64,000 nucleotides of DNA. It comes from Hyphomicrobiales bacterium. Its GTDB lineage: Bacteria > Pseudomonadota > Alphaproteobacteria > Rhizobiales > JAJFHC01. The position numbers and the translations under genes are program-made. Numbering within the stretch: position 1 is the stretch's first letter; every line of letters begins with the position of its first letter. The stretch covers positions 17,497 to 81,496 of the forward strand of contig CBDHYJ010000054.1 of assembly GCA_965275905.1 (NCBI GenBank). Reading direction: 5' to 3'. Under the pieces are notes generated by a model that made no database searches, was not told where the DNA came from, and saw nothing but the letters and a program-made list of their open reading frames with translations. Below are positions 9,880-60,493 of the stretch, piece after piece.

Positions 9880-11327
9880 ATGAACATGCTGGAAAAACGC
9901 GACTTTTACATCAACGGTGAATGGGTGGCCCCGCAACAGGGCACGGATCTCGAGGTCATCGACCCGTCCAACGAGGAGCCCTGTGCGGTTATTTCACTCG
10001 GCGGCCAGGCCGATACGGACAAGGCGGTGGCGGCGGCCAACGCGGCGTTCGACTCGTGGTCGATGACGGCGCCTGAGGAGAGATATGCCGTCGTCGAGCG
10101 GATTTTCGAGGTGTACAACGCCCGTTCCGACGACATGGCGAAAGCGATCAGCCTGGAAATGGGCGCGCCGATCGATCTCGCGAAGACCCAGCAGGCCGCC
10201 GCCGGAGCCGGGCACATCAAGAATTTCATGCGCGCGGCAAAGAATTTCCAGTTCGAGCGCATGCTGGGCGAGCATGCGCCCAACGACAGGATCCTGCATG
10301 AGCCGGTCGGCGTCTGCGGACTGATCACGCCGTGGAACTGGCCCATGAACCAGGTCACGTTGAAGGTCATTCCGGCCATGCTCACCGGCTGCACCATGGT
10401 GCTGAAGCCGTCCGAGATCGCGCCGCTGTCCTCGCACCTGTTTGCGGAGATCGTGCATGAGGCGGGCGCGCCTGCCGGTGTCTTCAACATGATCAACGGC
10501 GACGGCGCCGGCGTGGGCACGCAGCTTTCCGGCCATCCCGACGTCAACATGATCTCGTTCACGGGCTCGACCCGCGCCGGTATCGCGATTTCCAAGAACG
10601 CGGCCGATACGCTCAAGCGCGTCCACCTGGAGCTCGGCGGGAAAGGCGCCAACATCATTTTCTCAGACGCCGACGAGAAGGCGATCAAGCGCGGCACGCT
10701 GCACTGCTTCAATAACACCGGCCAGTCCTGCAACGCGCCGACGCGCATGCTGGTGCAGCGCGGCCTCTATGACGAGGCGGTCGAAACGGCAGGCGCCGTC
10801 GCCAGCGCGACCCAGGTCGGACCGGCCGACGAGGAGGGCCGTCACATCGGTCCGGTGGTCAGCGCCACGCAGTTCGACAAGATCCAGGACCTGATCGGCA
10901 AGGGCATCGACGAGGGTGCGACGGCTGGTCGCCGGCGGGCCGGGGCGCCCGGAAGGCGTCAACCGCGGCTATTTCGTGCAAACCGACCGTGTTCGCCGAC
11001 GTCACCAACGACATGACCATCGCGCGCGAGGAAATCTTCGGCCCGGTGCTCTCGATTATCCCGTTCGACAACGAGGAAGAGGCCATCAGGATCGCCAACG
11101 ACACGCCTTACGGACTGACCAACTACGTCCAGACCCAGGACGGCGACAAGCGCAACCGCGTCGCCCGCCGCCTGCGGTCCGGCATGGTCGAGATGAACGG
11201 CCAGCCGCGCGGTGCGGGCAGCCCGTTCGGCGGCTACAAGCAGTCCGGCAACGGCCGCGAAGGCGGTGTCTGGGGCCTTGAGGACTTCCTTGAGGTCAAG
11301 GCCGTAAGCGGCTGGGCGGACTCGTAA
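9880..11327 (+). pseudogene. aldehyde dehydrogenase family gene interrupted by two +1 frameshifts
   Basis: The ALDH sequence runs in frame 1 to ...GKGIDEGAT (~10921). It continues in frame 2 as [19 protein letters not shown], then in frame 0 from ~10981 as [22 protein letters not shown]...[12 protein letters not shown]. The extra bases appear as acgGctg and caaAccg. Confidence 0.8.
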
Positions 11328-16948: not shown

Positions 16949-17965
16949 ATGAACCTCGACAAGTTTGAGCGCTATCCGCTCACCTTCGGACCCACGCATA
17001 TCGAGTTTCTGCCGCGCATGACCGAAGCGCTCGGCGGCAAGGTCGAGATCTACGCCAAGCGCGACGACTGCAACTCGGGTCTGGCCATGGGCGGCAACAA
17101 GCTGCGCAAGCTGGAGTACATCGTGCCCGATGCGCTGGCGTCGAACGCGGACACGCTGGTTTCGATCGGCGGTGTGCAGTCGAACCATACCCGCATGGTT
17201 GCGGCGACGGCGGCCAAGATCGGCATGAAGTGCGTCGTCGTCCAGGAAAGCTGGGTGCCCCATGACGACGCGGTCTACGACCGGGTCGGCAACATCCTGC
17301 TCACCCGCCTCATGGGCGCCGACAGCCGCATCGTCGAGGACGGCTTCGACATCGGCATCCGTCAGAGCTGGGAGGACGCCATGCAGTCCGTGCGCGACGC
17401 GGGCGGCAAGCCCTACGGCATTCCGGCGGGCGCATCGGTCCACAAGTACGGCGGGCTGGGTTATGTCGGTTTCGCCGAGGAGGTGCGCGCCCAGGAGGCC
17501 GAACTCGGCTTCAGTTTCGATTACATCATCGTCTGCGTCGTGACCGGATCGACGCAGGCCGGCATGATCGTCGGCTTCGCTGCGGATGACCGCGCCGGCC
17601 GGGTCATCGGTATCGACGCATCGGGCACGCTCGAGCAGACCCGGGCACAGGTCCGCGAGATCGTCGACAACACGGCGGAGCTTGTGGAACTGGGCCGTAC
17701 CGTGCGCGACGAAGAGATCGTCATCAACCCGGACTATGCCTATCCGGCCTACGGCGTCCCGAGCAACGAGACCAACGAGGCGATCCGGTTCGCCGCCCGG
17801 ACCGAGGCCATGATCACCGACCCTGTCTACGAGGGCAAATCCATGCAGGGCATGATCGATCTGGTGAACAAGGGCTTCTTCCCGGTGGGTTCGAAAGTGC
17901 TATATGCCCATCTTGGCGGAGCCCCGGCACTGAACGGATACAGCTACACCTACCGCAACGGCTGA
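16949..17965 (+). CDS. acdS: 1-aminocyclopropane-1-carboxylate deaminase
   Basis: 338 aa containing [10 protein letters not shown] (PLP Lys), GGVQSNHTR, and the diagnostic DPVYEGKS (Tyr-Glu) and [10 protein letters not shown] (Leu) positions that separate true AcdS from D-cysteine desulfhydrase. Confidence 0.9.
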
Positions 17966-18039
17966 AGGCGACGCGCTCAAAGGTCTTGGCTCCGCGCACC
18001 GTGGGGCTTATTCAGGAGCGGTCTACCGCGGAGTGGTCC

Positions 18040-20430
18040 ATGTCGAGCGAGCTTCAACATCTCAAGACCATCGAGCAGCGGCTGCTGTGGCTGTCGCACT
18101 GGATGATCCACAACGCCAACAACCTGCGCGACAAGGAAGACGGGCTGAAGGTGGGCGGACACCAGGCCTCGTCGGCGTCCATGGTGTCGATCATGACAGC
18201 GCTCTACTTCTCCGTGCTGCGCCCTGAAGACCGCGTCGCCGTGAAGCCTCATGCCTCGCCTGTGTTCCATGCTATCCAGTATCTCATGGGCAATCAGGAC
18301 CTGGACCGCATGAAGAACTTCCGCGGTTACGGGGGCGTTCAGTCCTATCCGTCCCGCACCAAGGACGTCGACGACGTCGACTTCTCGACCGGCTCGGTCG
18401 GCCTCGGCGTCGCCATCACCGCCTTCGCGTCCATCGTCCAGGACTACATCAAGGCCAAGGACTGGGGCAGCGATCTCGACCTCGGCCGCATGATCGCGCT
18501 CGTCGGCGATGCCGAGCTTGACGAGGGCAATATCTACGAATGCCTGCAGGAAGGCTGGAAGCACGACCTGCGCAACTGCTGGTGGATCATCGACTACAAC
18601 CGCCAGTCCCTCGACGGCGTCGTCCGCGAGGGCCTGTGGCAGCGCATCGAGGCCTCGTTCCGGGCCTTCGGCTGGGACGTCGTGCTGATGAAATACGGCG
18701 TCCTCCAGCGCGCGGCCTTCGAGGAGCCGGGCGGGGAAAAACTGAGGGCCTGGATCGACGCCTGCCCGAACCAGCTCTATTCCGCGCTGACCTATCAGGG
18801 CGGTGCCGTCTGGCGCAGACGCCTGATGGACGATCTGGGCGACCAGGGCGACGTGACCGCGCTGCTGGACCGGCGCTCCGACGATGAACTGGCGGCCCTG
18901 ATGGAAAACCTCGGCGGCAACTGCGTCGAGACCCTGGTCGAGGCTTTCGAGGCGATCGATCATGACCGGCCGGTCTGTTTCCTGGCCTACACGATCAAGG
19001 GATGGGGCACGCCGCTCGCCGGCCACAAGGACAACCATGCGGGTCTGATGAACCGGCAGCAGATGGACGAGTGGCAGCAGCACATGGGTGTGCCTGTGGG
19101 TCAGGAGTGGGAGCCGTTCGCCACGGTCGGGGACGAGGCCGGCTTGCGCGCCTTTCTTGGCGACGTGCCGTTCTTCGCGAAGGGCACGCGCCGCTTCACC
19201 GACCGCGCCATGCCGTCGCCGCATGTCGATCTGCCGGCGGACCGGGAGGTCTCGACCCAGATGGGTTTCGGCAGGATTCTCGACGCCATTTCGCGCGAGG
19301 ACAGCGACCTGGCAGCGCGCATCGTCACCACATCGCCCGACGTCACCGTCTCGACCAATCTCGGGCCCTGGGTCAACCGCCGCGGCCTGTTCGCCAGGAA
19401 TGAGCTTGAAGACACGTTCCAGAGCGAGCGCATCCCGTCGACCCAGAAATGGACCTTCCGCCCGGACGGTCAGCACATCGAGCTCGGCATTGCGGAGATG
19501 AACCTGTTCCTGCTGCTGGGCGCAGCGGGCCTGTCGCATTCCCTGTTCGGCAAGCGGTTGCTGCCGGTCGGCACGGTCTACGATCCGTTCGTCGCCCGCG
19601 GCCTCGATGCCCTCAACTACGCCTGCTACCAGGACGCGCGCTTCATGATCGTCGGCACGCCGTCGGGCGTGACACTGGCGCCGGAAGGCGGCGCGCACCA
19701 GTCCATCGGTGCGCCGCTCATCGGTATGAGCCAGGACGGTCTGGCGTCGTTCGAGCCGGCCTATCTCGACGAGCTTGCCGTCATCATGCAATGGGCCTTC
19801 GACTACATGCAGCGCGACGGCGAGGGCGATCCGGACGAGCGCACCTGGCTGCGCGACGAGACCGGCGGTTCGGTCTACCTGAGGCTCTCGACCAGACCGC
19901 TGGAGCAGCCGGCCAAGCGTCTCGACGATAGTTTCCGGCAGGGCACGATCGACGGCGCCTACTGGTGGCGCGAGCCGGGTCCGAACTGCGACCTCGTGAT
20001 AGCCTATCAGGGCGCCGTCGCGCCCGAGGCCATTGGCGCCGCCGGCATTCTCGCCGAGCACCGGCGCGATATCGGCGTGCTGGCCGTGACCTCCGCCGAC
20101 CGCCTGAACGCGGGGTGGACGGCGGCCCAGCGTGACCGCGCACGCGGCAACCGCAAGGCGGCAAGCCACGTCGAGCGGCTGTTCTCACGCCTGCCGCGCC
20201 ACTGCGTGGTGCTCACCGTGGTCGACGGCCATCCCGCCACGCTGTCATGGCTTGGCGCAGTCGCCGGCCACAAGACGGTACCGCTCGGCGTCGAGCACTT
20301 CGGCCAGACCGGCACGATCCAGGATCTCTACCGCCATCACGGCATCGACCGGGACGGCATTGTCGATCAGGCGCAGGGCGCGCTGCCGACGGTCAAGGAG
20401 ATGGCGCGCGCCGTCAGGGCGGCGGATTAG
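18040..20430 (+). CDS. homodimeric-type 2-oxoacid dehydrogenase E1 / transketolase-like ThDP enzyme
   Basis: About 796 aa. Contains VGGHQASSASMVSIMTALYF, the GDAELDEGNIYE ThDP-binding motif and IIDYNRQSLDG, resembling AceE-type E1. No E2 or E3 gene is present in the window. Confidence 0.8.
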   Translation: MSSELQHLKTIEQRLLWLSHWMIHNANNLRDKEDGLKVGGHQASSASMVSIMTALYFSVLRPEDRVAVKPHASPVFHAIQYLMGNQDLDRMKNFRGYGGVQSYPSRTKDVDDVDFSTGSVGLGVAITAFASIVQDYIKAKDWGSDLDLGRMIALVGDAELDEGNIYECLQEGWKHDLRNCWWIIDYNRQSLDGVVREGLWQRIEASFRAFGWDVVLMKYGVLQRAAFEEPGGEKLRAWIDACPNQLYSALTYQGGAVWRRRLMDDLGDQGDVTALLDRRSDDELAALMENLGGNCVETLVEAFEAIDHDRPVCFLAYTIKGWGTPLAGHKDNHAGLMNRQQMDEWQQHMGVPVGQEWEPFATVGDEAGLRAFLGDVPFFAKGTRRFTDRAMPSPHVDLPADREVSTQMGFGRILDAISREDSDLAARIVTTSPDVTVSTNLGPWVNRRGLFARNELEDTFQSERIPSTQKWTFRPDGQHIELGIAEMNLFLLLGAAGLSHSLFGKRLLPVGTVYDPFVARGLDALNYACYQDARFMIVGTPSGVTLAPEGGAHQSIGAPLIGMSQDGLASFEPAYLDELAVIMQWAFDYMQRDGEGDPDERTWLRDETGGSVYLRLSTRPLEQPAKRLDDSFRQGTIDGAYWWREPGPNCDLVIAYQGAVAPEAIGAAGILAEHRRDIGVLAVTSADRLNAGWTAAQRDRARGNRKAASHVERLFSRLPRHCVVLTVVDGHPATLSWLGAVAGHKTVPLGVEHFGQTGTIQDLYRHHGIDRDGIVDQAQGALPTVKEMARAVRAAD

Positions 20431-26749: not shown

Positions 26750-27139
26750 TTACTGCCGCAATAACACGATATTGCTCCAGGCATCCGTCACTTCGGAGTG
26801 ACCGGGACCATCTTCGCCCCAGGCTAAAGAAATTGTGACCGCTGTTGGCGTGGCGCCTTTGGCGAAGCTGGCAATTCCGGCGATCGCGTTCGCCGCAACA
26901 AGGGTTGGCGGCTGATGCGACTGGTCGTAAGCAGTTCCATGGCCGGCGAGGCTGAAGTAGACGCCGTCCGCATTGAATTGAGATCGCACAACGACACCGG
27001 TCAGATCAAATCTTGCGGGCAAACCCTGTATTGAACTGTCCCATGTTCCCGATAACGCGCCGTTTGGCAGAACATTCAGAGTGAGTGTGCGGGTCATGCC
27101 GTGCGTCGACGCCGAATAAGTGCCGGTTAGAGTGTCCAT
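26750..27139 (-). CDS. hypothetical 129-aa protein, beta-rich (avidin-like strand pattern, speculative)
   Basis: ATG 27139 is preceded by GGAGG with a 5-nt spacer. Product starts MDTLTGTYSASTHGMTRTLTLNVLPNGALSGTWDSS.... It abuts a conspicuously AT-rich intergenic stretch. Confidence 0.5.
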   Translation of the reverse strand: MDTLTGTYSASTHGMTRTLTLNVLPNGALSGTWDSSIQGLPARFDLTGVVVRSQFNADGVYFSLAGHGTAYDQSHQPPTLVAANAIAGIASFAKGATPTAVTISLAWGEDGPGHSEVTDAWSNIVLLRQ

Positions 27140-27383
27140 AAGTGCCTCCATCCAAGTAAAATTAGAATTTATTCTTTGTTCTTGGGTAGAGTTGCACGTA
27201 AGTGGCAATCTTTCCAGCATTTATAATACTAAATGTAATTGAAAGTATCTGATTTATATAAAATCAATACACTAAAGAGCGTAATAATACGGCCGCCAGA
27301 ATCGGCTGATCACCCCGAATCCACAAGGTTTTGCTGTTTTCCTGAAGGGTTCAACGTGCGAGCGTCACACGCTGCAATGTACA

Positions 27384-28430
27384 TCAGTGGCCGTGCGTCC
27401 CGGCATACGCCTCGAGCCGCGCCATCCAGTCGGCATTCTCCGTGATTTCCCGGTTGACGATGCCGGTCGGCACCTTGCCCGCCATGACGTCGAGCACGGC
27501 GCGCACATCCGCCGCCCCGTTGCCCTCGAAGATCTGGTCGGTCCAGCACAGCGCGTGCGGCGTGATGATGGCGTTGTCGAGCTTGAGAATCGGGTCGTCC
27601 GGGTCTGGCGGTTCATGTTCCAGCACGTCGAGTCCTGCGCCGGCGATGCGTCCTGCCTGCAGCACCTCTGTGAGGGCCGCCTGATCGACGATCGGCCCGC
27701 GGGCCGTATTGATCAGGTAGGCGCTGGGTTTCATGAGCGCCAGGCGCTCGGCGTTGACGAGATGGTGCGTTGCGTCGCTGAGCGGGCAGTTGACCGCGAG
27801 TACGTCGGCGCTGCGGAACAGGGGCTCCATGTCGACCAGTTCGATGCCGAGTTCGGCGGCGAGGCCTTCGTCGGCATAAGGATCGTGCGCCATGAACTTC
27901 ATGTCGAACGGTTTTGCGACACGGAACATCTCCGCGCCGATATTGCCGATGCCGATCGAGCCCAGCGTCAGGCCAACGAGCCCGGTGCCGTTGTGGTTGG
28001 TCTTTTCCGCCCAGCCCGGCGGACCTTGCCGGGCCAGACGATCCTTGATCATGAGGTTGCCGGTCAGGGCGAACATGAGGGTCAGGATCGAGACCGCGAC
28101 CGGACGGCGGACGCCATCGGGGGTGATCACCAGCGCAACGCCGTTGGCGTTGCAGGCCTCCACGTCCACATTGTCGTAACCCACACCGAAGCGGGCAACC
28201 ACCGAAAGCCGCCCGGACCCCTTGAGCGTTTCTGCCGTCACCTTCGGAATCAGCAGTATCAGCGCGTCGATATCCGCAACCTGTGCGGCGGTGATTTCCG
28301 GTCCGTTTTCGAGCGTGACCAGCTCCAGGCCGTCCGTTTCGCGAAGCGGTGTGAGATCGAACTCCGGAAAGACAGGGGCGCCGCTGGGATCGAAGAAGTC
28401 GCCACTCAATGCAACGCGAAATTGGGTCAT
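27384..28430 (-). CDS. D-isomer-specific 2-hydroxyacid dehydrogenase family protein
   Basis: Contains GLTLGSIGIGNIGAEM (NAD fold), VNTARGPIVD and ITPHA. Confidence 0.85.
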   Translation of the reverse strand: MTQFRVALSGDFFDPSGAPVFPEFDLTPLRETDGLELVTLENGPEITAAQVADIDALILLIPKVTAETLKGSGRLSVVARFGVGYDNVDVEACNANGVALVITPDGVRRPVAVSILTLMFALTGNLMIKDRLARQGPPGWAEKTNHNGTGLVGLTLGSIGIGNIGAEMFRVAKPFDMKFMAHDPYADEGLAAELGIELVDMEPLFRSADVLAVNCPLSDATHHLVNAERLALMKPSAYLINTARGPIVDQAALTEVLQAGRIAGAGLDVLEHEPPDPDDPILKLDNAIITPHALCWTDQIFEGNGAADVRAVLDVMAGKVPTGIVNREITENADWMARLEAYAGTHGH

Positions 28431-28442
28431 GATGATGTACTC

Positions 28443-29219
28443 CTACTTCGTGCCTTCGCGGATCGCGCTGAGGCCGGCGGCGACGGCGTCGCCCAGCGCC
28501 CAGGCATCCGCGGAATAGGCAATGAAATCGAACCCCTGCTTGAACAGGTCGATGCCGCTGGCGACATCCGGGACGAGCCGTCCGGCGGACTTGCCGTGTT
28601 TGTCGCAGGCCGCGAGCACGGTCTCGATGGCGCCGAGGAAGTCCGGATGGTCGAACTGTGCGGGAATGCCCAGCGAGCAGGACAGGTCGAAATGGCCGAC
28701 CCACAGGCAGTCGACGCCGTCGATGGCCGCGATCGCATCGGCATTCTTCACGCCGTCGGCGGTCTCGATCTGGGCGAAAAGGGTGGTCCGCTTGTTCTGG
28801 AACTCCAGTTTCTCGACCGTGTCGCCCGCCGTGAACCGGTCAAATGCGCACCGCACGATCACGCCCCGGCCGCCGCGCGGCACGTACTTCATCGACTGCA
28901 CGATCTGCTCCGCCTCCTCGGGCGTCGACACCATGGGCAGCATCAGGCCCTCCGCGCCGGCATCGCACGCCCTGGCGATGTCCTTGTAGTCCTTCGAGGG
29001 CACGCGCACGATGGTCGGCAGCTCGGCACCCTGCATGTAGCGCAGCACGCGCTTGGTGGTTTCGATGCCGAAGCCGCTGTGCTCCGTGTCGAAGATCGTG
29101 AAGTCACAGCCGGCGGACTTCAGGATGTGCCCGATGCCGGGCGTGTCGAATTCGAACACGAAATGCCCCGCCTTCAGGTTGCGGTGCTGCGCCATGTCCT
29201 TCAGCGGTGTATCGCTCAT
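28443..29219 (-). CDS. HpcH/HpaI-family 2-keto-3-deoxy-acid aldolase
   Basis: 258 aa containing FVFEFDTPGIGHIL, MLPMVSTPEEAE and AQIETADGV, typical of class II HpcH aldolases. Confidence 0.85.
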   Translation of the reverse strand: MSDTPLKDMAQHRNLKAGHFVFEFDTPGIGHILKSAGCDFTIFDTEHSGFGIETTKRVLRYMQGAELPTIVRVPSKDYKDIARACDAGAEGLMLPMVSTPEEAEQIVQSMKYVPRGGRGVIVRCAFDRFTAGDTVEKLEFQNKRTTLFAQIETADGVKNADAIAAIDGVDCLWVGHFDLSCSLGIPAQFDHPDFLGAIETVLAACDKHGKSAGRLVPDVASGIDLFKQGFDFIAYSADAWALGDAVAAGLSAIREGTK

Positions 29220-29259
29220 TCTTTCTTCTCCTCAGGGATTGGTCTGGCCTGTCCGGTCG

Positions 29260-31211
29260 TCAGGTGCGTATCCGGACCGTCGCATACGGGCTCAGCAGCA
29301 GTGTGTCGCCGCTGAGGCTCTTTTCGGTGTCGTCAAATCCGGACGTGGCAGACGCGCAGGCTTCGAAGCTTTCCGCGTCAAGCCGCGCGACCGGAGCGCC
29401 GTTGACGTCCTGACCGCGCATTGTCACGGTCTGTGCGTCGCCGGTGAGGTTGGCGAGCCACAACTCGGTGGTCCCGTCCCTGCTGAAGGCGAGCGCCTGC
29501 ACATCACACGGTGCTGTAATCGTTGTCGCCAGCCGTTCCGTGCCGGATGCACCGTAGAGTGCGCGCATCACGTGCCAGGCCGGATAGAGTCCGCCGGCCT
29601 CGTCATACCAGGGCTGGGCATAGTCCATACGGCTGTGCGCCAGACCGAACTCGCCGACCGGTGCGCCCAGCGCCACGCTGTCGACGCCGCCTTCTGCCAG
29701 ACGTGCCGCGTAGCCCAGGTGCCAGGCCGCGCCGAGCAGGCCGCGCTGGCGCGGATCGGCACGGGTCATGGTTATGCGTTCGGCATGCGGATTGGCCGGC
29801 GGTTCGTTGCCGAACGGGCTGGTGCGTGATCCGATGCCGGCCGGTGCGATCCGGTAGTGCATGTCGCCGAACATCGCGCGTGCCGATGAGATGACAAAGG
29901 GCAGGCATTCGATGGTCTCGGTCACCGACCGGTCGTCGGCGGCATGAACCAGGGCGCAGGTCCCGTGGGTCACAAAGTCGAGCTTGCCGAACGGCGGCGG
30001 CTTGCGGTTGAGTTCGGTGAAGTAGACGAACGTGCCTCCGCCGAGCCTCGCATTCGGGAATGCGGCCCGGGCAGCATCGTAAAGTTCATCGAACTCTTTG
30101 GTGTCCGGAAAGACCGTGCCCGGAATGACGAAGCCGAGGTCGCCGGCCGGTGTCACGGCGACTGTCGAGAACGTAACGCCGGCATTGCTCGCGACATCAG
30201 CGACGGCTGCCATTTCCTCGGCGGCCGGCTCTGTTCCGGGTGCCACGATTTCGAGCGAAAGCTCTGCGCCGAGGCGTTCGCCCAGGGCCTTGAACGCGCG
30301 CATCGACGCGGTGCCGTCATGGTGGCGTGCGTCGAAATAGCAGCTCAGGAACTTCGGTGCGAGCGGGCTTACAAGATCCGCGGCCTCCAGTGCCGCCGAG
30401 GCAAGCTGGGCTTCCACGCCCATGCCGAATTCGGGAAGCCGCCCCTCCGGGCCGCCGATGGTGACCTCTACGGGCGCGGGGCCGTCGCCGGCAGAGACCG
30501 CCGGCGCGCCGCCCTCGAACCTGAGAGTCACCGACTGGCCGAGTTCCTCGCCGTCGGCAATGGTGAACGGGTGCGGCAGGCTGAGCGGACGCACATAGGT
30601 CTTGTAGGACGCGTCTGTCCAGTTGCGCTGGTCCTCCATCTCGAACGTATCGCCTTCCATGGTGCAGACCACCCGGCAGCCGGGCGCCACCTGGTGTGTG
30701 AGCGCGCGGATGTCCATGATCGGCTGCTCCGGGTCGATACGGTCGGGGAACACGGTCTCGGTGATGCTGCCGTTCACGTCCTCTACCGTCACCGGATGGC
30801 CGCTGATGCCTTCGACGGCATGCAGCACGACGAAGCCGGTACGGTTGGTCAGGAAATCCCCCGACGCCCGGCCGTCGGCGGCGAAGCTGAGGGAGCCGTC
30901 CGGCTCGCCGCGGATTCTCGCATCGTAGGTGAAGGCGCTGTCGCCATCCGTGCAGGTCGCCCTGTAGCTGACGGTGAACCCGTCAGCGTTCTCGTCGACC
31001 GAAAAATCCTCGATCACCGGGTTGAAGGTGCCCCAGTACTGGTCGCGCACCACATAGGAGATCGCCCGGATGGCCTCCTTTCCGCCGAAACAGATGTAGC
31101 GCAGGTTGCCGGCGTCGAGTTCTGCCGTGAGCGGTCCTGCGGTCAGCAGGCGGGTTTCGGCCGGCGGCTGATCGGTGCCGAAGAGTTTGACGGCGTGGCT
31201 CGGTTTTGCAG

Positions 31212-31215
<4 letters not shown>
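29260..31215 (-). CDS. 651-aa protein of unknown function embedded in a sugar-utilisation operon
   Basis: Long ORF with coding-like composition. Its ATG overlaps the ATPase stop (ATGA at 31212-31215). I recognise no family. The N-terminal third is beta-rich, and the C-terminal end resembles glycosidase-type beta-sandwich tails. Confidence 0.75.
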
Positions 31216-32348
<1,133 letters not shown>

Positions 32349-32360
32349 CCCGTCTGCCCT

Positions 32361-33215
32361 CTACCCCTTGACCGCGCCCATGGTGATGCCGCGCACGAGA
32401 TAGCGCTGCAGGAAGGCGACCGCGACGAACACCGGCGCCGCTCCCAGTACGCTCATGGCTGCGATCTTCGCCCAGAAGTTCGATTGCGCGCCGAAATAGT
32501 GCGTGACCTGGACCGGATAGGTCGTCACCTCGCTGCGGGTCATGACCAGCGCGAAGATGAAATCGTTCCAGGCGAACACGAAGGTGAAGACGGCGGTTGC
32601 GAACAGGCCGGTGCGCACCATCGGGAAGATCACCCGGACCATGACCTGCCAGCGCGTGCAGCCGTCGACCAGGGCGCTTTCCTCGAGTTCCGCCGGCACG
32701 TCCTCGATGTACCCCCTCATCATCCATATGACGTAAGGCAGATTGAATGCGGTGTAGAGCAGGATCAGCCCGTGATAGGTGTCGACCCAGCCGAGCCATA
32801 CATAGAGCAGGAACAGCGGGAAGACGATGGCGATCGGCGGGATCATGCGCTGGGAGATGATCCAGACCGCCAGGTTGTCTCCGCCGGTGCGGAAGCGGGC
32901 AAGACTGTAGGCGCACAATGTGCCGAGGAACATGGCGAGCACGGTGCTGACGCCGGCTATGAACAGGCTGTTCCAGACCGTCACCGCGTCGCCGTCACGG
33001 AACAGCACGGCAAAATTGTCGAACTGAATGCTGGCCGGATACCAGACCGGCGGCGAGGCGAAGATCTCTTCCGGCGTCTTGAACGAGATCATGAACAGCC
33101 AGTAGATCGGAAACAGGAACAGCACGGTCAGCGCGATCGCGGCGGCATAGCGCAGGGCCAGCCGCAGCGTCCTGCGCCGGGTGATCCGCCGGCGGGCCTC
33201 TGCAGCCGCGCTCAT
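32361..33215 (-). CDS. carbohydrate ABC transporter permease
   Basis: Six-TM MalG/UgpE-like protein with an EESALVDG EAA-loop. Confidence 0.9.
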   Translation of the reverse strand: MSAAAEARRRITRRRTLRLALRYAAAIALTVLFLFPIYWLFMISFKTPEEIFASPPVWYPASIQFDNFAVLFRDGDAVTVWNSLFIAGVSTVLAMFLGTLCAYSLARFRTGGDNLAVWIISQRMIPPIAIVFPLFLLYVWLGWVDTYHGLILLYTAFNLPYVIWMMRGYIEDVPAELEESALVDGCTRWQVMVRVIFPMVRTGLFATAVFTFVFAWNDFIFALVMTRSEVTTYPVQVTHYFGAQSNFWAKIAAMSVLGAAPVFVAVAFLQRYLVRGITMGAVKG

Positions 33216-34141
33216 CGCGCGATCTCCATGCGTTTCAGTGCGAAGATCACGGCGGCCGTGAGCATCACGATGACGAGAAAGGCAATCGCGCCGGTATAGC
33301 TGGTCTCGAACTGCCGGAAGCCCTGAATGTAGGTATAGATCGAAATGGTCTCCGTCATGGTGCCGGGACCGCCCTTGGTCAACGCCCAGATCACGTCAAA
33401 GATGCGGAACAGATTGAGGCCGCGGATCAGGAGCGCGATCGCCATGACCGGCCAGATCGCCGGCAGCACGATCTTCCAGAAAATCCTCCGGGCCGATGCC
33501 CCGTCGATTTCGGCCGCCTCGATCAGGCTCTGGTCGACGTTCGAGAGCGCGGCCAGCAGGATCAGGAACATGAACGGCGTCCACTGCCAGACTTCGGCAA
33601 TCAGGATCGCCGGATAGACGAACTCCGCCTTGATGGTCCACAGAATGGTGACCGGCTCGCCCTTTATCCAGCCCAGCACCTGATTGATTGGACCGTAGCG
33701 GTTGTCGAACAGGAGCCGCCAGGTGGCGCCGGCGACGACCGGGGCGATCATGGTCGGCAGGACGAGCAGGGCGACGAAGATCTGGCGCCCCGGCATGCGG
33801 TCGAGGAACAGGAGCGCCATGGCGAGGCCGATGCCCAGTTCGAGCGGCAGCGCGATCATCGTGATCAGCATGGTATGGGCGAGCGACTCCCACAGTCTTA
33901 CGTCACTGAACAGGGCGCCGTAGTGCACCAGGCCATGGAAGCTCGTGTCCTCTTCGAGCATCGTGACGTTCTGGAAACTCACCACGAGGGTGTAGATGAG
34001 GGGGAAGATGCCGATAAAGAGCAGCAGGAAGACGGCCGGCGCAATGATCAGGTACTTGAAGCGGCGGTCCGAGAACCGGCTCAGCCGGGTTCCCAGATCA
34101 GGCGTCGATGCAGGGTCCTGGGGCGCGGTGGCGGTTGTCAT
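33212..34141 (-). CDS. carbohydrate ABC transporter permease
   Basis: MalF/UgpA-like protein with an EAAEIDGAS EAA-loop. It overlaps the next gene by 4 nt. Confidence 0.9.
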   Translation of the reverse strand: MTTATAPQDPASTPDLGTRLSRFSDRRFKYLIIAPAVFLLLFIGIFPLIYTLVVSFQNVTMLEEDTSFHGLVHYGALFSDVRLWESLAHTMLITMIALPLELGIGLAMALLFLDRMPGRQIFVALLVLPTMIAPVVAGATWRLLFDNRYGPINQVLGWIKGEPVTILWTIKAEFVYPAILIAEVWQWTPFMFLILLAALSNVDQSLIEAAEIDGASARRIFWKIVLPAIWPVMAIALLIRGLNLFRIFDVIWALTKGGPGTMTETISIYTYIQGFRQFETSYTGAIAFLVIVMLTAAVIFALKRMEIAR

Positions 34142-34234
34142 CTCGCTCTAATACCTTGTTCCCGCAACTGCGGGAGGCGGGACGGTCCGGGGCAGCGCCT
34201 TTGCCTGCGCCGCCCCGGTGTGCTGGTGGGCTGA

Positions 34235-35689
34235 CTACTTCTTCGGATAAGCGTTGGGTTTGCCGGCCCAGTCGGCATAGGCTGCCTTCTGCCTGTCGAC
34301 GCCGATCTTCTGCGTCAGGGCATCCCATTGGGCCGCCACGTCGTCGAGAATCGCCTTGGCGTCCTCGCCGGCCCACAACCGCGTTACCGACTGGCGCAGT
34401 GCTTCCTCGTATTTGTCGATCTGCAGGATCGAAAGGTCGAGCAGGCCCGTGTCGGCGCCCTTGCGCAGTGTTGCGAGATACTTCGAGGCATCGCCCCAGC
34501 GCGACAGATACTCCTTGTCGGTGAAGTGAGACTCACGGAACGGGTCCCGGAGCGCGTAGGGAAGCTGCACACGCTGCAGGCTGATTTCCTCGCTGTTCAG
34601 CCACTGGATGAACAGATAGGCCGCTTCCTTGTTCTTGCTTTTTGATGAAACCGAGAGGGAGAATCCGGCGGCGAGTTGCGGCGTCCCGCCCGGCGGCAAG
34701 GCGTAGCCCACCTTGTCGGCGATCTTGGTCTTGGGCACCCACGACAGCGCTTTCTCGTCCGTGCCGTATCCGGCGGCCCAGCGGCCAAACGGCGGCCACG
34801 AGATGGTCATGGCGATATCACCGGCGAGGAATGAACTCAGCGCTTCGACGAAGCCCCAGGTTTCGACGCCCGGAGGCATGAACTTGTTGTCGTTGCGCAT
34901 GCCTTCGTAGACCTTGACGCCGATCTCGTTGTTGATCTGCGCCTTCATCGTCTCGGGGTCGAAGAACCTGCCGCCCTCGACACGATACCGTTCCTCGAAC
35001 AGCCAGATGCCGTATGCGGGCCCGCGGAACTGGCCTGCGCCGTAAATCTTGGGCTTGTACTTTTCGGTGATGAAATTGCCGATGTCGGCATATTGCTGCC
35101 ACGTCTTCGGCGGGGCCAGATCGTAGCCATGCTTGGCCTTGAAGGCCTTCATGTTTTCCGGATCCTCGAACAGGTCCTTGCGGTAGTAGAGCACGAACAG
35201 ATCGCCGTCATCCGGGAAGCCGTAGATCTTGCCGTCCACCGTCATCTGGTTGTCGCGGTAGGTCGGCGCGATCTTCTGCAGTTCATCCCGAAAGCCGAAT
35301 TTGTCGACATAAGGGTCGAGCACTTCGAGCGCACCCGCCTTGACCAGGTCCGGCATCCAGCTCGGGATGACGTTGAGCGCGTCGTAGGCGCCGGTTCCGG
35401 CACGGTGTTCCTGCAGGATCTTGGTGAACATCTCGGCCGTCGGCACCTCGATCACCTTGACCTTTATGCCGGTCAGTTCTTCCCATTTGGGCCCGGAGAA
35501 ATTCAGCGGGTCGAGCGACTGCAGCCCGGCCTCCCAGACAATGCTGATTTCGGTTCCGGAGTATTTCTTGGCGGCTTCGACGGCACGTTCCGCGGCGGAT
35601 TGTGCCGATGCCGGCAGCGACGAGATCAGGCTCCCGGCGAACAGGCCAACTGCCATGCCCACCGCGGCCAATGCACGCGTGACTCTCAT
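34235..35689 (-). CDS. ABC transporter extracellular solute-binding protein (family 1)
   Basis: ATG 35689 follows GGGAGG. It has a signal peptide (MRVTRALAAVGMAVGLFAGSLISSLPASA). At 484 aa it is larger than typical family members. Confidence 0.85.
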   Translation of the reverse strand: MRVTRALAAVGMAVGLFAGSLISSLPASAQSAAERAVEAAKKYSGTEISIVWEAGLQSLDPLNFSGPKWEELTGIKVKVIEVPTAEMFTKILQEHRAGTGAYDALNVIPSWMPDLVKAGALEVLDPYVDKFGFRDELQKIAPTYRDNQMTVDGKIYGFPDDGDLFVLYYRKDLFEDPENMKAFKAKHGYDLAPPKTWQQYADIGNFITEKYKPKIYGAGQFRGPAYGIWLFEERYRVEGGRFFDPETMKAQINNEIGVKVYEGMRNDNKFMPPGVETWGFVEALSSFLAGDIAMTISWPPFGRWAAGYGTDEKALSWVPKTKIADKVGYALPPGGTPQLAAGFSLSVSSKSKNKEAAYLFIQWLNSEEISLQRVQLPYALRDPFRESHFTDKEYLSRWGDASKYLATLRKGADTGLLDLSILQIDKYEEALRQSVTRLWAGEDAKAILDDVAAQWDALTQKIGVDRQKAAYADWAGKPNAYPKK

Positions 35690-35843
35690 TCTAACCTCCC
35701 TGATTTTCCGGGGTTCCCGCAGAGCAAGACGGTCAGCCCGCAACATGCTTGTTTGCTTTGCATGTCATCAGGATGTTAACTTGTCATACCAGTGAGGTCA
35801 AACCCTGTTCCTTGATCTGGCGGATGGTGCCGAATCAAGGCAG

Positions 35844-36590
35844 ATGAGAACCATGACAGACAGCGATTTCGAGCCCATCCCCCGGCGCAAGCTCTACCAG
35901 GAGGTGGTGGACCGTCTGGTGAACCGGATTTCCAGGGGGACGTACGCGCCCGGCGACAAGCTGCCGTCGGAACGCGAACTGATGTCCCAGTTCGGCGTCG
36001 GCCGTCCGGCGGTCCGCGAGGCCATGCAGTCGCTGGAGCGCATGGGACTGATTTCCATCAGCCACGGCGAGCGGGCCAATGTGAAGGAGCCGGACGCCCG
36101 GGCGGTGATCGATCAGGTCGCCACGACGGTCCGGCATATGCTGATCACGTCGCCGCAGACGCTGGACCATCTCAAGGAGGCACGGCTGTTCTTCGAGGCC
36201 GGCATGGTTCGGATCGCCACCGAGATGGCGACGGATGCGGATATCGCACGCCTGAAGGGTCGGCTCGATGACCACTTCGAGAGCCTGAACGACCTGAGCA
36301 CCTTCCTTGAGAAGGACAAGCTGTTCCATGGCGAGATTGCCGCCATGAGCCGCAATCCCATCTATGCCGCCGTCAGCCAGGCGGTGTTCGAGTGGCTGGA
36401 GGAGTTCCATGTCGAGTTGGTCCGGCTGAAAGGCGCCGAACACGTCACGCTCGAGGAACACACGGCGATTTACGAGGCGATCGCCGCGCGCGACGCCGAT
36501 GCCGCAGTCGCGGCCATGGAACGGCATCTGCTGCGCGCCAACGCGGTGTACAGGCAGCTCGAGCTCTCGGGCCTGGGAAGCCGCGACTAG
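35844..36590 (+). CDS. GntR-family (FadR/FCD subfamily) transcriptional regulator
   Basis: Contains the LPSERELMSQFGVGRPAVREAMQSL wHTH and a helical FCD-like C-terminus. It is divergent from the ABC operon. Confidence 0.85.
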   Translation: MRTMTDSDFEPIPRRKLYQEVVDRLVNRISRGTYAPGDKLPSERELMSQFGVGRPAVREAMQSLERMGLISISHGERANVKEPDARAVIDQVATTVRHMLITSPQTLDHLKEARLFFEAGMVRIATEMATDADIARLKGRLDDHFESLNDLSTFLEKDKLFHGEIAAMSRNPIYAAVSQAVFEWLEEFHVELVRLKGAEHVTLEEHTAIYEAIAARDADAAVAAMERHLLRANAVYRQLELSGLGSRD

Positions 36591-54110: not shown

Positions 54111-54479
54111 CTATGCTTCCTTCGGCGTGGCAATGTCCGCTTTGAGCTCGTGCGGCTCGAGCGGATCGAGAAACGGGTTGCGATAGAGCTTGTCGTGACT
54201 TTCGACGCCGATCTCCAGCGTGCAGTCGGAGACCGGCCGCGCGATGCAAAGCAGCACGTATCCGTCGTTGATCTGGCGATTGTTCAGCGCCACCTGCCGG
54301 CGCTGGTCGACGTCGCCTGAAGTCAGTTTGGCTGCGCAGGTGATGCAGCCGCCATACTTGCACCCGTAGGGCAGATCGACGCCCTGTTCGCGCAACGTGT
54401 CGAGCAGCGGGCGGCGGGCATCGACCGCGTAGGTCTCTCCGCCGCGGTTGGCGATCGTTATGGTCCGGGTGTCCGTCAC
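54111..54479 (-). CDS. plant-type [2Fe-2S] ferredoxin
   Basis: The Cys spacing is C-x4-C-x2-C-x29-C (YGCKYGGCITCAAKL...VLLCIARP). The GTG start overlaps the upstream TGA as GTGA. Confidence 0.8.
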   Translation of the reverse strand: MTDTRTITIANRGGETYAVDARRPLLDTLREQGVDLPYGCKYGGCITCAAKLTSGDVDQRRQVALNNRQINDGYVLLCIARPVSDCTLEIGVESHDKLYRNPFLDPLEPHELKADIATPKEA

Positions 54480-55843
54480 AGCCAGATATCGCTCGTGCAG
54501 TCGCCGCCGGGATAGCGGGTTTCGTGGCAGCGGCTCGGCCCGTTCGGTTCCTGGCCGAAATCCACCATGAAGTCTTCGTTGATCTTCATGCCGCCGTTTT
54601 CGACATCGCAATCGATCATCACCATCACGCCGCCCTGGGTGCGGATGTCGGGATAGAACTGGTTGTCCCAGGTCGAAAACAGCGAGGTCGTGACATAAAG
54701 CCGTCTGCCGTCGAGGGAGAGCTGGAACATCTGCGGGCCGCCGGCCACCCTGACGCCGTTGACCTCGGGCGCCTTGCCCAGGAGCCCTCCCATCCAGACC
54801 TGGCCGGTGAGCTTGGGATTGTGCGGGTCGGTGATGTCATACTGGCGCATGTCGCCATGCAGCCAGTTGTTGAGATAGAGGTACCGGTCGTCCATCGACA
54901 CCAGAATTGCCGACATGACGCCGGGAATCGGTATCGGCCATTCGGGGTGCGGCTCGTTTTCCACGTCGATGATCTTTTCCCACTCCCATGTTCCGGCTTC
55001 GGACTTCCAGAAATGGATCACATTGGCGCTGAGCGCCGCGCCGCAGAAGCCGTGGCTGCTGTCCGGGTCGTGGTGGAACTTGACCTCAAGCGGGATCAGC
55101 CCGTCCTCGCCAAGATACTTGGTCTCGACGGGAACGCGCTTTTCGAAGTCCCAGAAGTGCAGGCGGCGGCCGTATTTGAGGTGGCCCACCTCTTCCAGGT
55201 CGAAGCCCGGCATGAAGGTGTTCGGGGCCGCCCATTCGGAACTCACCATCACGTTGTGGCGCGGCTGATACCAGAAATCATAGCCGAACGGGATGTCGCC
55301 CATCGAGGTCTCCCAGCGGCCCACGATCTCAAAGTCCTTGTTGAGATGCAGGTAGCCGCCTGGCGCTTCGCCCATGGCGTCGCCGAGGAACGAGATGATG
55401 ATCTCGGACCCGAGGCAGTGGACGGTGTGCGGTCCGGAGAGGTTGGTTTTCGCCTTGATCTCGGCGCCGTCGATCACCTTGTGCAGGCGCGGCGCACGAG
55501 GGTCGGTGGCCGTGTCGACGACATGGATGTTGTTCGAGCGGACACCCGGCACGAGCAGGTACTTGCGCGACATGGAGGCGTCGTCATGACATGACGAACA
55601 GGCATTCCAGCCCATGTGGTGCAACTCGTCCCCGATCCCCGGCATCTCCAGCCGGTGAATCACCTGTGAATAGGTCGGACTGTCCGGATCCGCGTCGATC
55701 GTCGCCAGATAGTCGGGCTTCTGGATGCCCGTGCCGGTGTAAATCGCGATGGAATAGAGGAGTTTTTCGCGTGGCGCCTTGATCGCCTCCGCCGGGCTTG
55801 CATATCCCGGGCCGCAGCACGGCGTCTCACCATTACCACTCAT
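54476..55843 (-). CDS. selenium-binding protein 56 family (SELENBP1/MtoX methanethiol-oxidase family), no signal peptide
   Basis: 455 aa, colinear with human SELENBP1 as I recall it. Shared blocks are CCGPGYASPAEAIKAPREKLLY, DELHHMGWNACSSC, GYDFWYQPRHNVMVSSEWAAPN, LHGDMRQYDITDP, GGPQMFQLSLDGRRLYVTTSL and RYPGGDCTSDIWL. Confidence 0.9.
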   Translation of the reverse strand: MSGNGETPCCGPGYASPAEAIKAPREKLLYSIAIYTGTGIQKPDYLATIDADPDSPTYSQVIHRLEMPGIGDELHHMGWNACSSCHDDASMSRKYLLVPGVRSNNIHVVDTATDPRAPRLHKVIDGAEIKAKTNLSGPHTVHCLGSEIIISFLGDAMGEAPGGYLHLNKDFEIVGRWETSMGDIPFGYDFWYQPRHNVMVSSEWAAPNTFMPGFDLEEVGHLKYGRRLHFWDFEKRVPVETKYLGEDGLIPLEVKFHHDPDSSHGFCGAALSANVIHFWKSEAGTWEWEKIIDVENEPHPEWPIPIPGVMSAILVSMDDRYLYLNNWLHGDMRQYDITDPHNPKLTGQVWMGGLLGKAPEVNGVRVAGGPQMFQLSLDGRRLYVTTSLFSTWDNQFYPDIRTQGGVMVMIDCDVENGGMKINEDFMVDFGQEPNGPSRCHETRYPGGDCTSDIWL

Positions 55844-59449: not shown

Positions 59450-59522
59450 TCCGGATCTCCAGACAGAGGATAAATTGAACGCACCTATTGCGAGGCCGGG
59501 TCGGCGGCTCGCCGACCGCTGT

Positions 59523-59577
59523 GACGACAGTAACTGGCTGAATTGAGCCAGAAAATCCATCGGACAAATGCCGGATA
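59523..59577 (-). promoter_or_regulatory. conserved upstream element, copy A (5' of cueO-like gene)
   Basis: GACGACAGT-N24-TCCATCGGACAAATGCCGGATA. The same 9-mer, the same 24-nt spacing and a 21/22-identical box occur at 60531-60585. Confidence 0.45.
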
Positions 59578-59674
59578 AGCCGGGCCGGCACATGCGACAT
59601 AAGCTCAATCCTGGAACTGCTGCCGCATGTCGGACCGGGCCGAGTGGCACGCGGGCGACTGTGCGCAAGCCGTG

Positions 59675-60493
59675 TCAGACGGATACGGGTTTGCGCATGA
59701 CGGCGCAGACATAGTGTTTCTCGCCAGTTCGGAATCGGGCGATTTCCTCGCGCGCCGCCGCACCGGCAAACGAAAAGGACGCCACCAGATTGCGCAAGGG
59801 GGCGGGCACGCGCCGCCGCAGCATCTCCTGCTTCCGCGGGTCGGCCAGCTCGAGCGCGCGCGCGATATTGGCCGAAACATCTTCAATGCACTCCACCTCG
59901 TACCTCAAGGCCTCCAGCCGGGCGCGCAGTTTTGCCATGCCTTTGGCGCTTCGATAATCCGCCAGGAGGAAATGGCCGCCAGGCCGCAAGACCCTGTCGA
60001 CTTCTGCAAGAAACCGCTCCTGGTCGGGATAGTTGAGCGACGACTCCACATTGATGAGGATGTCGCAGCAGGCGTCCGTAAGCGGAAGGTTCTCGGCATC
60101 GCCTGCGATGAACGAGAGGCCGTGGCGTCTGATGTATTCGGAATTGCAGAAATCCACGGCAGTCTGGGCGAGGTCGACGCCCTTCATGGATCTGGGGCTG
60201 AACACATCAAACACGTATGACGTGCCGCCTCCGCGGCCGGAGCTCACTTCCAGCGCGTCCCTGTCTGCCCACGACACCTTTGCGGCCAGACGGTGATAAA
60301 GCTGAATGGGATACCGGTGTTTCTCCTGCCCCTCGGAAAGCTCTACCAGATGAGGATTTCCGTTCACCGGAGCATAACCGTGGTTCATGAAAGCCAGATC
60401 ATCACCGGTGTCGAAACGCGAAATGAAGTCGTACCAGTGATTGGCGAAACGGCTCTTGGTCTTCTTGGGGAGTTTTTTCCAGGTTTTGTACAT
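59675..60493 (-). CDS. class I SAM-dependent methyltransferase
   Basis: Contains ALEVSSGRGGGTSYV (motif I), DILINVESSLNYPD and LRPGGHFLLADY. Length is 272 aa. Confidence 0.8.
   Translation of the reverse strand: MYKTWKKLPKKTKSRFANHWYDFISRFDTGDDLAFMNHGYAPVNGNPHLVELSEGQEKHRYPIQLYHRLAAKVSWADRDALEVSSGRGGGTSYVFDVFSPRSMKGVDLAQTAVDFCNSEYIRRHGLSFIAGDAENLPLTDACCDILINVESSLNYPDQERFLAEVDRVLRPGGHFLLADYRSAKGMAKLRARLEALRYEVECIEDVSANIARALELADPRKQEMLRRRVPAPLRNLVASFSFAGAAAREEIARFRTGEKHYVCAVMRKPVSV

Follow-up and report, generated by a model that had tools for sequence, protein, structure and literature searches.

An operon in a Hyphomicrobiales bacterium links a D-apionate lactonase-family protein to an HpcH-type aldolase and a 2-hydroxyacid dehydrogenase

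Two catabolic systems lie closest to the operon considered here. The D-apionate lactonase ApnL and the oxidative D-apiose pathways, to which the protein models OiaK (NF042436) and OiaX (NF042437) are related, were reportedly described by Carter and colleagues in 2018 (Nat Chem Biol 14:696), and the D-erythronate/L-threonate pathway (DenD/LtnD-OtnI-OtnK-OtnC) is said to have been worked out by Zhang and colleagues in 2016 (PNAS 113:E4161). The operon occupies positions 27384-35746 of a 64,000-nucleotide stretch (the window) of contig CBDHYJ010000054.1 from a Hyphomicrobiales bacterium (assembly GCA_965275905.1), and combines an ATP-binding cassette (ABC) importer with an aldolase, a dehydrogenase and a protein of 651 amino acids (aa; 29260-31215, minus strand). 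A first-pass annotation, made from the sequence alone, held that the 651-aa protein matched no nameable family. We find that it belongs to the ApnL family and that its genomic partners differ from those of the known pathways. The best explanation overall, in which our confidence falls slightly short of even, is a substrate-inducible catabolic operon in which a lactone is converted to a 2-hydroxy acid and then a 2-oxo acid before retro-aldol cleavage, with D-apionate or a close analogue as the likely substrate.

The 651-aa protein matches the NCBIfam model for D-apionate lactonase ApnL (NF049900) from end to end (E=3e-185, 617 bits, model positions 2-593 of 595), and the Pfam families PF25837, PF25838 and PF25839 (Apionate_lact_N/M/C) are recorded on an identical database protein (P0001); it is therefore not unrecognisable, and a match of this kind is what the first-pass annotation had named as refuting its reading. 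A Pfam scan of the protein gave zero matches, but the Pfam copy scanned apparently lacked PF25837-9, so that this result is no sign of novelty. No relative was found by sequence search of the PDB, and no signal peptide was detected in the predicted cytoplasmic product. As had been supposed from its coding character, the open reading frame (ORF) is a real gene: GC content at third codon positions is 0.80, the ratio of nonsynonymous to synonymous substitution rates is 0.12 against an orthologue 83 % identical, and more than 5,600 homologues were found, with 4,983 representatives of 50 %-identity clusters. By sequence, the protein is an ApnL family member at family level, not a demonstrated equivalog, since its score lies below the equivalog cut-off of 750 bits. 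That cut-off appears conservative, because one protein inside an OiaX/OiaK cluster (L079) reaches only 570 bits, while ApnL proteins of canonical clusters in Mesorhizobium and Inquilinus score 891-939. The earlier proposal that the 651-aa protein performs the missing first catalytic step thus stands in part: a hydrolase, plausibly acting in the first cytoplasmic step of an uncharacterised sugar-acid pathway, is consistent with a lactonase family, whereas a lyase, isomerase or glycosidase is not.

Genome neighbourhoods suggest how this family has been put to different uses. Among 83 loci (80 from a scan of one genome per species plus L001-L003, compared by tblastn and ORF clustering, with recurrent clusters annotated by family), we distinguished three mutually exclusive contexts. 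Class C (23 loci, mostly Mesorhizobium) comprises a CUT2 ABC importer, a Gfo-type dehydrogenase, an ApnL of about 600 aa, a GntR regulator, the RuBisCO-like protein OiaX (774 bits against a 700-bit cut-off), an OiaK-like kinase and a gene with a PGDH_C domain; these are the genes of the oxidative apiose pathway already known. Class B (12 loci) is the D-erythronate pathway, with a CUT2 ABC importer, an ApnL-like protein, DenD, OtnI, OtnK and OtnC, the four enzymes all scoring above their NCBIfam cut-offs. Class A (25 loci) places an ApnL-like protein beside a pair formed by an HpcH-family aldolase and a 2-hydroxyacid dehydrogenase, and spans Alpha- and Gammaproteobacteria as well as Acidobacteriaceae; 17-18 of the 25 also have the CUT1 ABC importer seen in the window. 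The aldolase and dehydrogenase are found in none of the 35 class B or C loci, and OiaX and the PGDH_C gene in none of the 25 class A loci. The HpcH/dehydrogenase pair, mutually exclusive with the OiaX/PGDH_C module, thus behaves as another way of processing the lactonase product downstream.

The linkage of the 651-aa gene to transporter and aldolase genes, and to the dehydrogenase, holds in other genomes, as the first-pass annotation expected. The entire cassette is kept in the syntenic locus L001 and in L002, where the flanks are unrelated and the lactonase is 59 % identical, and linkage recurs across the class A loci. A reverse test gave the same picture: among 12 metagenome contigs that carry an HpcH gene product at least 72 % identical and have upstream sequence, the lactonase lies immediately upstream in 11 (the exception being L085), and the dehydrogenase follows HpcH wherever the sequence continues. 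Class A occurs in at least three gene orders, namely SBP…ApnL-HpcH-DH, as in the window (SBP, solute-binding protein; DH, dehydrogenase), GntR-ABM-HpcH-DH-SBP…ApnL, and Gfo dehydrogenase-ApnL-HpcH-DH.

Several variants of these neighbourhoods deserve separate mention. An ABM-domain protein (about 102 aa, a dimeric alpha+beta barrel) lies directly upstream of HpcH in nine cassettes (L009, L025, L033-L036, L042, L043 and L045; e.g. L035:3030-3338), the window cassette not being one of them, and could be a mutarotase- or tautomerase-like accessory. In L049, L051 and L052 (e.g. L052:4676-15042), a larger cluster encodes a two-subunit GcvP-like protein, an NAD-kinase-like protein, a Gfo dehydrogenase, ApnL, HpcH and the 2-hydroxyacid dehydrogenase, together with an acyl-CoA dehydrogenase, an ADP-forming acyl-CoA synthetase and enoyl-CoA hydratases; in a marine version (L101-L103), an amino-acid-type ABC system replaces the Gfo dehydrogenase and ApnL. 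A Hyphomicrobiales metagenome-assembled genome carries, directly after its ApnL-like gene, a fused large and medium subunit of a B12-dependent diol/glycerol dehydratase (L011:12001-14316; NF011979, 834 bits). In class B loci (L012-L032, L062 and L078; e.g. L020:10001-11932), the ApnL-like proteins form a clade of 645-650 aa scoring about 620-635 bits on NF049900, and their position between the CUT2 ABC genes and DenD/OtnI/OtnK/OtnC suggests a D-erythronolactonase (or D-erythrose oxidative) function for this subfamily.

The two enzymes that define class A are recognisable by family. The putative HpcH/HpaI-family class II (divalent-metal) 2-oxoacid aldolase (28443-29219, minus strand) matches PF03328 (5.8e-35) with 121 bits against a gathering cut-off of 25, and its H47, R72, E152 and D178 align to the catalytic and metal-binding residues H50, R75, E153 and D179 of GarL. 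Its closest solved structures are GarL (1dxe, E=2e-32) and YfaU, but it falls below the equivalog cut-offs for GarL (133 vs 393 bits), HpaI (128 vs 369 bits) and RhmA (92 vs 441 bits). The putative D-isomer-specific 2-hydroxyacid dehydrogenase (27384-28430, minus strand) has both expected domains above gathering score (2-Hacid_dh_C, 1.5e-54, 184.5 bits; 2-Hacid_dh, 1.5e-15, 57.5 bits) and is nearest to SerA-type enzymes and glyoxylate/hydroxypyruvate reductases, with scores under the SerA, GhrA/B and PdxB equivalog cut-offs. NCBIfam release 20 holds no specific model for either protein. No dehydratase is encoded among the seven operon genes, and none recurs in the 25 class A loci; the simplest source of the 2-oxo group required by such an aldolase would therefore be oxidation of the opened lactone by the D-2-hydroxyacid dehydrogenase.

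From the gene content, families, aldolase residues, linkage and mutual exclusivity observed, we infer an order of reactions, a substrate and products. The CUT1 importer would bring in a sugar-derived 1,4-lactone, or a compound yielding one, which the cytoplasmic ApnL-family enzyme would open to a D-2-hydroxy sugar acid. The dehydrogenase would then oxidise C2 to give a 2-oxo acid, and the HpcH-type metal aldolase would split the C3-C4 bond by retro-aldol cleavage. This sequence of lactonase, dehydrogenase and aldolase is probable, while D-apionate specifically is a possible rather than a probable substrate. The C2 hydroxyl of D-apionate is D-configured, as in the substrates of SerA and PdxB. 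In the D-apionate case, 2-oxo-apionate, a 3,3-disubstituted 4-hydroxy-2-oxoacid, would be cleaved to formaldehyde and 2-oxo-tetronate; retro-hydroxymethylation of compounds of this kind has precedents in 2-dehydropantoate aldolase (EC 4.1.2.12) and PanB. The 2-oxo-tetronate could enter the OtnI/OtnK/OtnC route to dihydroxyacetone phosphate. Alternatively, a second cleavage may yield hydroxypyruvate, which the same dehydrogenase could reduce to D-glycerate. Dehydrogenase and aldolase would thereby stand in for the ApnO/OiaK/RuBisCO-like-protein module of the oxidative apiose pathways already known, in which ApnO likewise starts with C2 oxidation of D-apionate (PMC12994016). Details of the D-apiose pathways given here were cross-checked against NCBIfam names, PMC12994016, PMC13001218 and bioRxiv 10.64898/2026.03.13.711244.

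Clues to the substrate come from Acidobacteriaceae. In L077 and L050, a GH140 apiosidase-like gene (PF13204, 2e-65) runs with the dehydrogenase and HpcH genes (HpcH<dehydrogenase<GH140), divergent from ApnL; the ApnL of L077 passes the equivalog cut-off (794 bits), and that of L050 leads into genes for a GH78 rhamnosidase and for rhamnose catabolism (RhaT, an isomerase-like TIM barrel, an SDR fusion and an FGGY kinase). The linkage Rha-alpha1,3-Api-beta1,2-GalA occurs in the side chains of rhamnogalacturonan-II, where GH140 BT1012 is the apiosidase (bioRxiv 10.64898/2026.03.13.711244). Since the gene set matches this linkage, L077 and L050 resemble gene sets for the joint use of rhamnose and apiose, with ApnL, dehydrogenase and aldolase as the only candidate for an apiose branch. 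Furthermore, a Gfo-type aldose dehydrogenase gene lies directly upstream of the lactonase gene in L052 and of the cassette in L042. The L022 cassette runs straight into DenD-OtnK-OtnC-OtnI, and OtnK adjoins the L011 and L043 cassettes, which fits 2-oxo-tetronate as a product.

The presumed control of the operon is consistent with induction by a sugar acid. A divergent gene on the plus strand (35844-36590) encodes a GntR/FCD (FadR-type) regulator (GntR 5e-22, FCD 4e-20), as first annotated, whose NCBIfam match is to the NanR subfamily (NF003011), with 298 bits against a cut-off of 260. With the regulators of apiose (OiaX, class C) clusters it shares 47-60 % identity, but with those of D-erythronate (class B) clusters only 25-32 %. 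Within the 97-bp divergent control region (35747-35843), which was examined by promoter scan and for operator motifs, lies the only sigma-70-like site in 10.3 kb scanned, a promoter-like site on the minus strand with a -35 hexamer TTGACC at 35801 and a -10 hexamer TAACAT ending at 35773. Between the two hexamers (35781-35791) is a candidate FadR-type operator, TTGTCATACCA, which fits the FadR-family operator pattern TNGTNNNACNA, a pattern that occurs only four times in the window, this site included. The motif recurs unchanged in L001 and with a single base altered in L005, where it lies inside a conserved block of about 30 bp and the lactonase is 59 % identical to the 651-aa protein. FCD-domain regulators typically sense carboxylates, and the regulator therefore fits a sugar-acid inducer. 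It probably represses the operon and responds to a carboxylate intermediate, which would release it from TTGTCATACCA over the promoter.

The importer set is complete, with an SBP_bac_1 family-1 (CUT1) periplasmic binding protein (34235-35746; 1e-35), two BPD_transp_1 permeases (33212-34141, 3.5e-14; 32361-33215, 3.8e-20) and a single MalK/UgpC-type ATPase (31212-32348) with ABC_tran and OB_MalK domains that scores 443 bits on NF008653, above the 432-bit cut-off; all four genes are on the minus strand. The family given for the binding protein in the first-pass annotation was right, but its oversized length is partly a start-codon artefact, because translation likely starts at Met20 (35689), giving 484 aa: an AGGGAGG Shine-Dalgarno sequence precedes Met20, the signal peptide ends SLPASA|QS, and the syntenic L001 orthologue is called at 484 aa. 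The PDB relatives of this protein (sorbitol, maltose and sulfoquinovosyl-glycerol binders) are only distant, with E >= 3.5e-11, and its ligand can thus not be inferred from them. CUT1 systems usually carry oligosaccharides or polyols. Together with the usual absence of an aldose dehydrogenase from the cassette, a CUT1 importer suggests import of a lactone, acid or conjugate, not free apiose.

A number of observations weigh against the explanation proposed for the operon. The importer is of the CUT1 type, in contrast to the CUT2 importers of apiose and erythronate clusters. No aldose dehydrogenase, Otn or formaldehyde-detoxification gene is present in the 64 kb of the window, and even among the 25 class A loci a Gfo dehydrogenase occurs in only four and Otn genes in three. 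The 617 bits of the 651-aa protein, besides falling short of 750, are about equal to the 623-633 bits of its relatives in D-erythronate clusters (other class A proteins score 546-667), and the protein is 47 % identical to these class B relatives compared with 42 % to true ApnL of class C. The aldolase and dehydrogenase also travel without the lactonase: pairs about 52 % identical occur beside an amino-acid-type ABC system and GcvP-like and CoA-dependent enzymes, so the pair is a portable two-step unit. Moreover, Mesorhizobium sp. M1312 holds both a class A cassette (L035) and a canonical class C apiose cluster (L069), and L078 encodes two ApnL-family paralogues, 44 % identical and 5 kb apart, one after a CUT1 ABC system as in class A (L078:3021-4979), the other after a CUT2 ABC system and before erythronate genes as in class B (L078:10001-11947). 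Because such paralogues co-occur in M1312 and in L078, they probably handle different compounds or entry forms.

In support of the family assignment, 67 family members drawn from the three context classes, the 651-aa protein included, share 70 invariant positions, and only T126, V130 and E433 differ systematically between class A and bona fide ApnL of class C. The classes are about equidistant from one another (40-47 % identity), class A is not monophyletic in a neighbour-joining tree of the family, and the window protein is marginally nearer to class B, so the substrate cannot be fixed by sequence alone.

One alternative, which we consider unlikely, takes an unbranched C4 compound, D-erythrono- or L-threono-1,4-lactone, as the substrate. 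In that case the dehydrogenase would form 2-oxo-tetronate, the aldolase would release hydroxypyruvate and formaldehyde, and the dehydrogenase may reduce hydroxypyruvate to D-glycerate. The large sub-threshold clade of ApnL relatives in clusters with DenD, OtnI, OtnK and OtnC, the similarity in identity and score between the 651-aa protein and that clade, and the nesting of the cassette-type proteins of L022, L025 and L034 within it in the neighbour-joining tree are all consistent with such a substrate. However, L022 encodes both DenD and the 2-hydroxyacid dehydrogenase, one of which would be superfluous, the L077 context, with its GH140 apiosidase-like gene and threshold-passing ApnL, points to apiose, and the regulator of the operon resembles those of apiose clusters, not those of erythronate clusters.

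Alternatively, and with a similarly low probability, the lactone could be another aldono-1,4-lactone or derive from another branched sugar acid, such as a pentono- or hexono-lactone or a lactone from the aceric acid of rhamnogalacturonan-II, with hydroxypyruvate or another 3-substituted 2-oxoacid plus glycolaldehyde, acetaldehyde or glyceraldehyde as products. That a single genome carries both a paralogue and a canonical apiose cluster (L035 and L069) speaks for a different substrate, as does a CUT1 rather than a CUT2 importer, and the family is star-like, all classes being 40-47 % identical to one another. We know of no route for aceric acid catabolism. No positive evidence favours any particular alternative lactone, however, and the fact that only three positions discriminate the cassette proteins from true ApnL suggests very similar substrates. 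Pantolactone or pantoate catabolism, which involves the same chemistry, was set aside given the sugar-related contexts (GH140, Gfo dehydrogenases and Otn genes).

Whether the 651-aa protein might instead be a glycoside hydrolase (GH) can be judged from its predicted structure. An AlphaFold2 model built with 30 homologues (predicted local distance difference test score 80.8, predicted template modelling score 0.84) comprises an N-terminal beta-sandwich (about 20-260), a (beta/alpha)8-like barrel (about 262-555) and a C-terminal beta-sandwich (about 560-650), which bears out the earlier description of a beta-rich N-terminal third and a GH-like C-terminal beta-sandwich. Foldseek searches of the PDB returned the GH79 beta-glucuronidase 8ohu (E=1e-13), heparanase and GH30 xylanases (E about 1e-13), and the model has the barrel plus beta-sandwich architecture of clan GH-A (GH79/GH30). 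Like 8ohu, 5la4 and 3kl0, it packs a (beta/alpha)8 barrel on a C-terminal beta-sandwich, but the 651-aa protein has no detectable sequence similarity to these enzymes and has an extra N-terminal beta-sandwich that bears its most conserved motif. The acid/base and nucleophile glutamates of clan GH-A sit at the ends of barrel strands beta4 and beta7. In the model, whose strand positions are a moderately reliable prediction, no family-invariant acidic residue follows beta4 (351-356) or beta7 (453-456); invariant residues cluster instead in the N-domain motif and after beta3, beta5 and beta6 (E322, E401, D413, H424, D427 and D428). The resemblance is therefore treated as one of fold only, and a glycosidase role was dropped.

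A hydrolase that acts on a CUT1-imported disaccharide or glycoside, with aldolase and dehydrogenase processing one moiety, is accordingly very unlikely. It would draw on the fold and on the established habit of CUT1 transporters of importing oligosaccharides, but the template modelling score to 8ohu is modest (0.42 query-normalised, 0.57 target-normalised), no GH Pfam match or PDB sequence match was found, the catalytic positions are not conserved, and the only characterised activity in the family is lactone hydrolysis (NF049900). Least tenable of all is the pathway end point first put forward, aldol cleavage of a 2-keto-3-deoxy acid, here taken to give pyruvate and an aldehyde in a classical oxidative sugar pathway, with the dehydrogenase handling the aldehyde or acid product: although GarL and YfaU, the closest solved relatives of the aldolase, are 2-keto-3-deoxy-sugar-acid aldolases, the cassette has no dehydratase and none recurs in related loci, the aldolase scores far under all equivalog cut-offs, and HpcH enzymes accepting hydroxypyruvate-type nucleophiles are known (PDB 6r62 family), so that this route was dropped.

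All seven operon genes run on the minus strand and are closely packed, and the ORFs and gene families of the first-pass annotation were reproduced exactly by the ORF list and Pfam scan. Two junctions overlap by 4 nt, between the permease genes (33212-33215) and between the ATPase and 651-aa genes (31212-31215); the latter reads ATGA, with GGAG about 8 nt upstream, and the remaining intergenic gaps are 12, 12, 40 and 93 nt, in line with the overlaps and short gaps reported before. Downstream lie genes for an EamA exporter and a MocR-type regulator, and upstream a HEAT/DNA_alkylation-like protein and a siderophore ABC system; since the genes on both flanks are unrelated, the operon is a self-contained unit. 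A 156-aa ORF on the minus strand (26750-27220), which lies 164 nt downstream of the dehydrogenase gene and has no match in the Pfam scan, has a counterpart (92 %) only in the syntenic L001 and none in any other cassette; its membership of the operon is doubtful.

Elsewhere in the window, an aldehyde dehydrogenase gene on the plus strand (9880-11327) appears split: one ORF (9880-11016) covers only Aldedh positions 1-333 of 461 and is followed in another frame by a 112-aa ORF (10989-11327), which could reflect a frameshift, a pseudogene or a sequencing error. A transketolase/PDH-E1-like protein (about 815-835 aa; PDH, pyruvate dehydrogenase) and a PALP-family enzyme are encoded near the cassette both in the window (16949-20430, plus strand) and in L002 (15334-20006); this pair, common to two otherwise non-syntenic loci, may mark residual synteny or a functional link. 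Unrelated to the operon is a gene (54476-55843, minus strand) whose product very strongly matches the 56-kDa selenium-binding proteins (SBP56, E=2e-205), the family to which methanethiol oxidases belong, near genes for a multicopper oxidase and a methyltransferase (57962-59668 and 59675-60493).

Apiose and the other rare sugars of rhamnogalacturonan-II represent abundant plant-wall carbon whose microbial fate is only partly mapped. The cassette occurs widely among Alpha- and Gammaproteobacteria from soil, marine and plant-associated settings and among Acidobacteriaceae, and is at present annotated as a "hypothetical protein" with a generic aldolase and dehydrogenase. It is a solid, testable lead for enzyme-function discovery. 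That it forms an undescribed route for branched plant-wall sugar acids, working without kinase or dehydratase on D-apionate or possibly aceric acid, is a more doubtful proposition. If it does, the dehydrogenase and HpcH aldolase would excise carbon as an aldehyde (formaldehyde in the case of apionate) and yield 2-oxo-tetronate or hydroxypyruvate. The two enzymes together would then do the work of the first half of the ApnO oxidoisomerase reaction, and the route would count as a fifth one for apiose. Showing that ApnL-type lactonases have such another downstream module would add new reactions (2-oxo-apionate formation and its retro-aldol cleavage), lead to the re-annotation of thousands of genes and explain organisms that lack the RuBisCO-like-protein route.

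Compared with ApnL and the oxidative D-apiose pathways, the operon shares the same three-domain lactonase family, with a full-length profile match and 70 family-invariant residues, a related GntR/FCD regulator, and a layout in which ABC import would be followed by lactone opening. It departs from them in the sub-cut-off score and about 50 extra C-terminal residues of its lactonase and in the type of its importer. ApsD, ApnO, OiaK, the RuBisCO-like proteins (OiaC/OiaT/OiaX) and ApsI/AplK/AptAB are all absent from the window; in place of ApsD, OiaK and the RuBisCO-like protein stand the HpcH aldolase and D-2-hydroxyacid dehydrogenase, and the two modules never co-occur. The D-erythronate/L-threonate pathway is similar in that its clusters contain a sister ApnL-like clade, in that three cassettes (L022, L011 and L043) adjoin Otn genes, and in that both would oxidise a D-2-hydroxy sugar acid at C2. 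Unlike that pathway, the window has neither Otn genes nor DenD, an enzyme of the 2-Hacid_dh family would perform the oxidation instead of DenD, and an aldolase is present for which the tetronate pathway has no use.

The non-phosphorylative (Dahms-type) routes of GarL and YfaU/RhmA likewise pass from a lactonase through a sugar acid to a class II aldolase, with the same aldolase Pfam family and catalytic residues. They differ from the operon in their dehydratase; here an NAD(P)-dependent oxidation would supply the 2-oxo group, and no 3-deoxy intermediate is expected because no dehydratase is present. The reversible C1 loss catalysed by 2-dehydropantoate aldolase (EC 4.1.2.12) and PanB is the reaction proposed for 2-oxo-apionate, by chemical analogy only, their substrate being dimethyl-substituted and the proposed one hydroxy/hydroxymethyl-substituted. 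In the literature covered, from which subscription journals were excluded, we found no description of a module combining ApnL, HpcH and a 2-hydroxyacid dehydrogenase. The operon is none of the described apiose pathways, nor is it the tetronate pathway or a classical dehydratase-dependent route.

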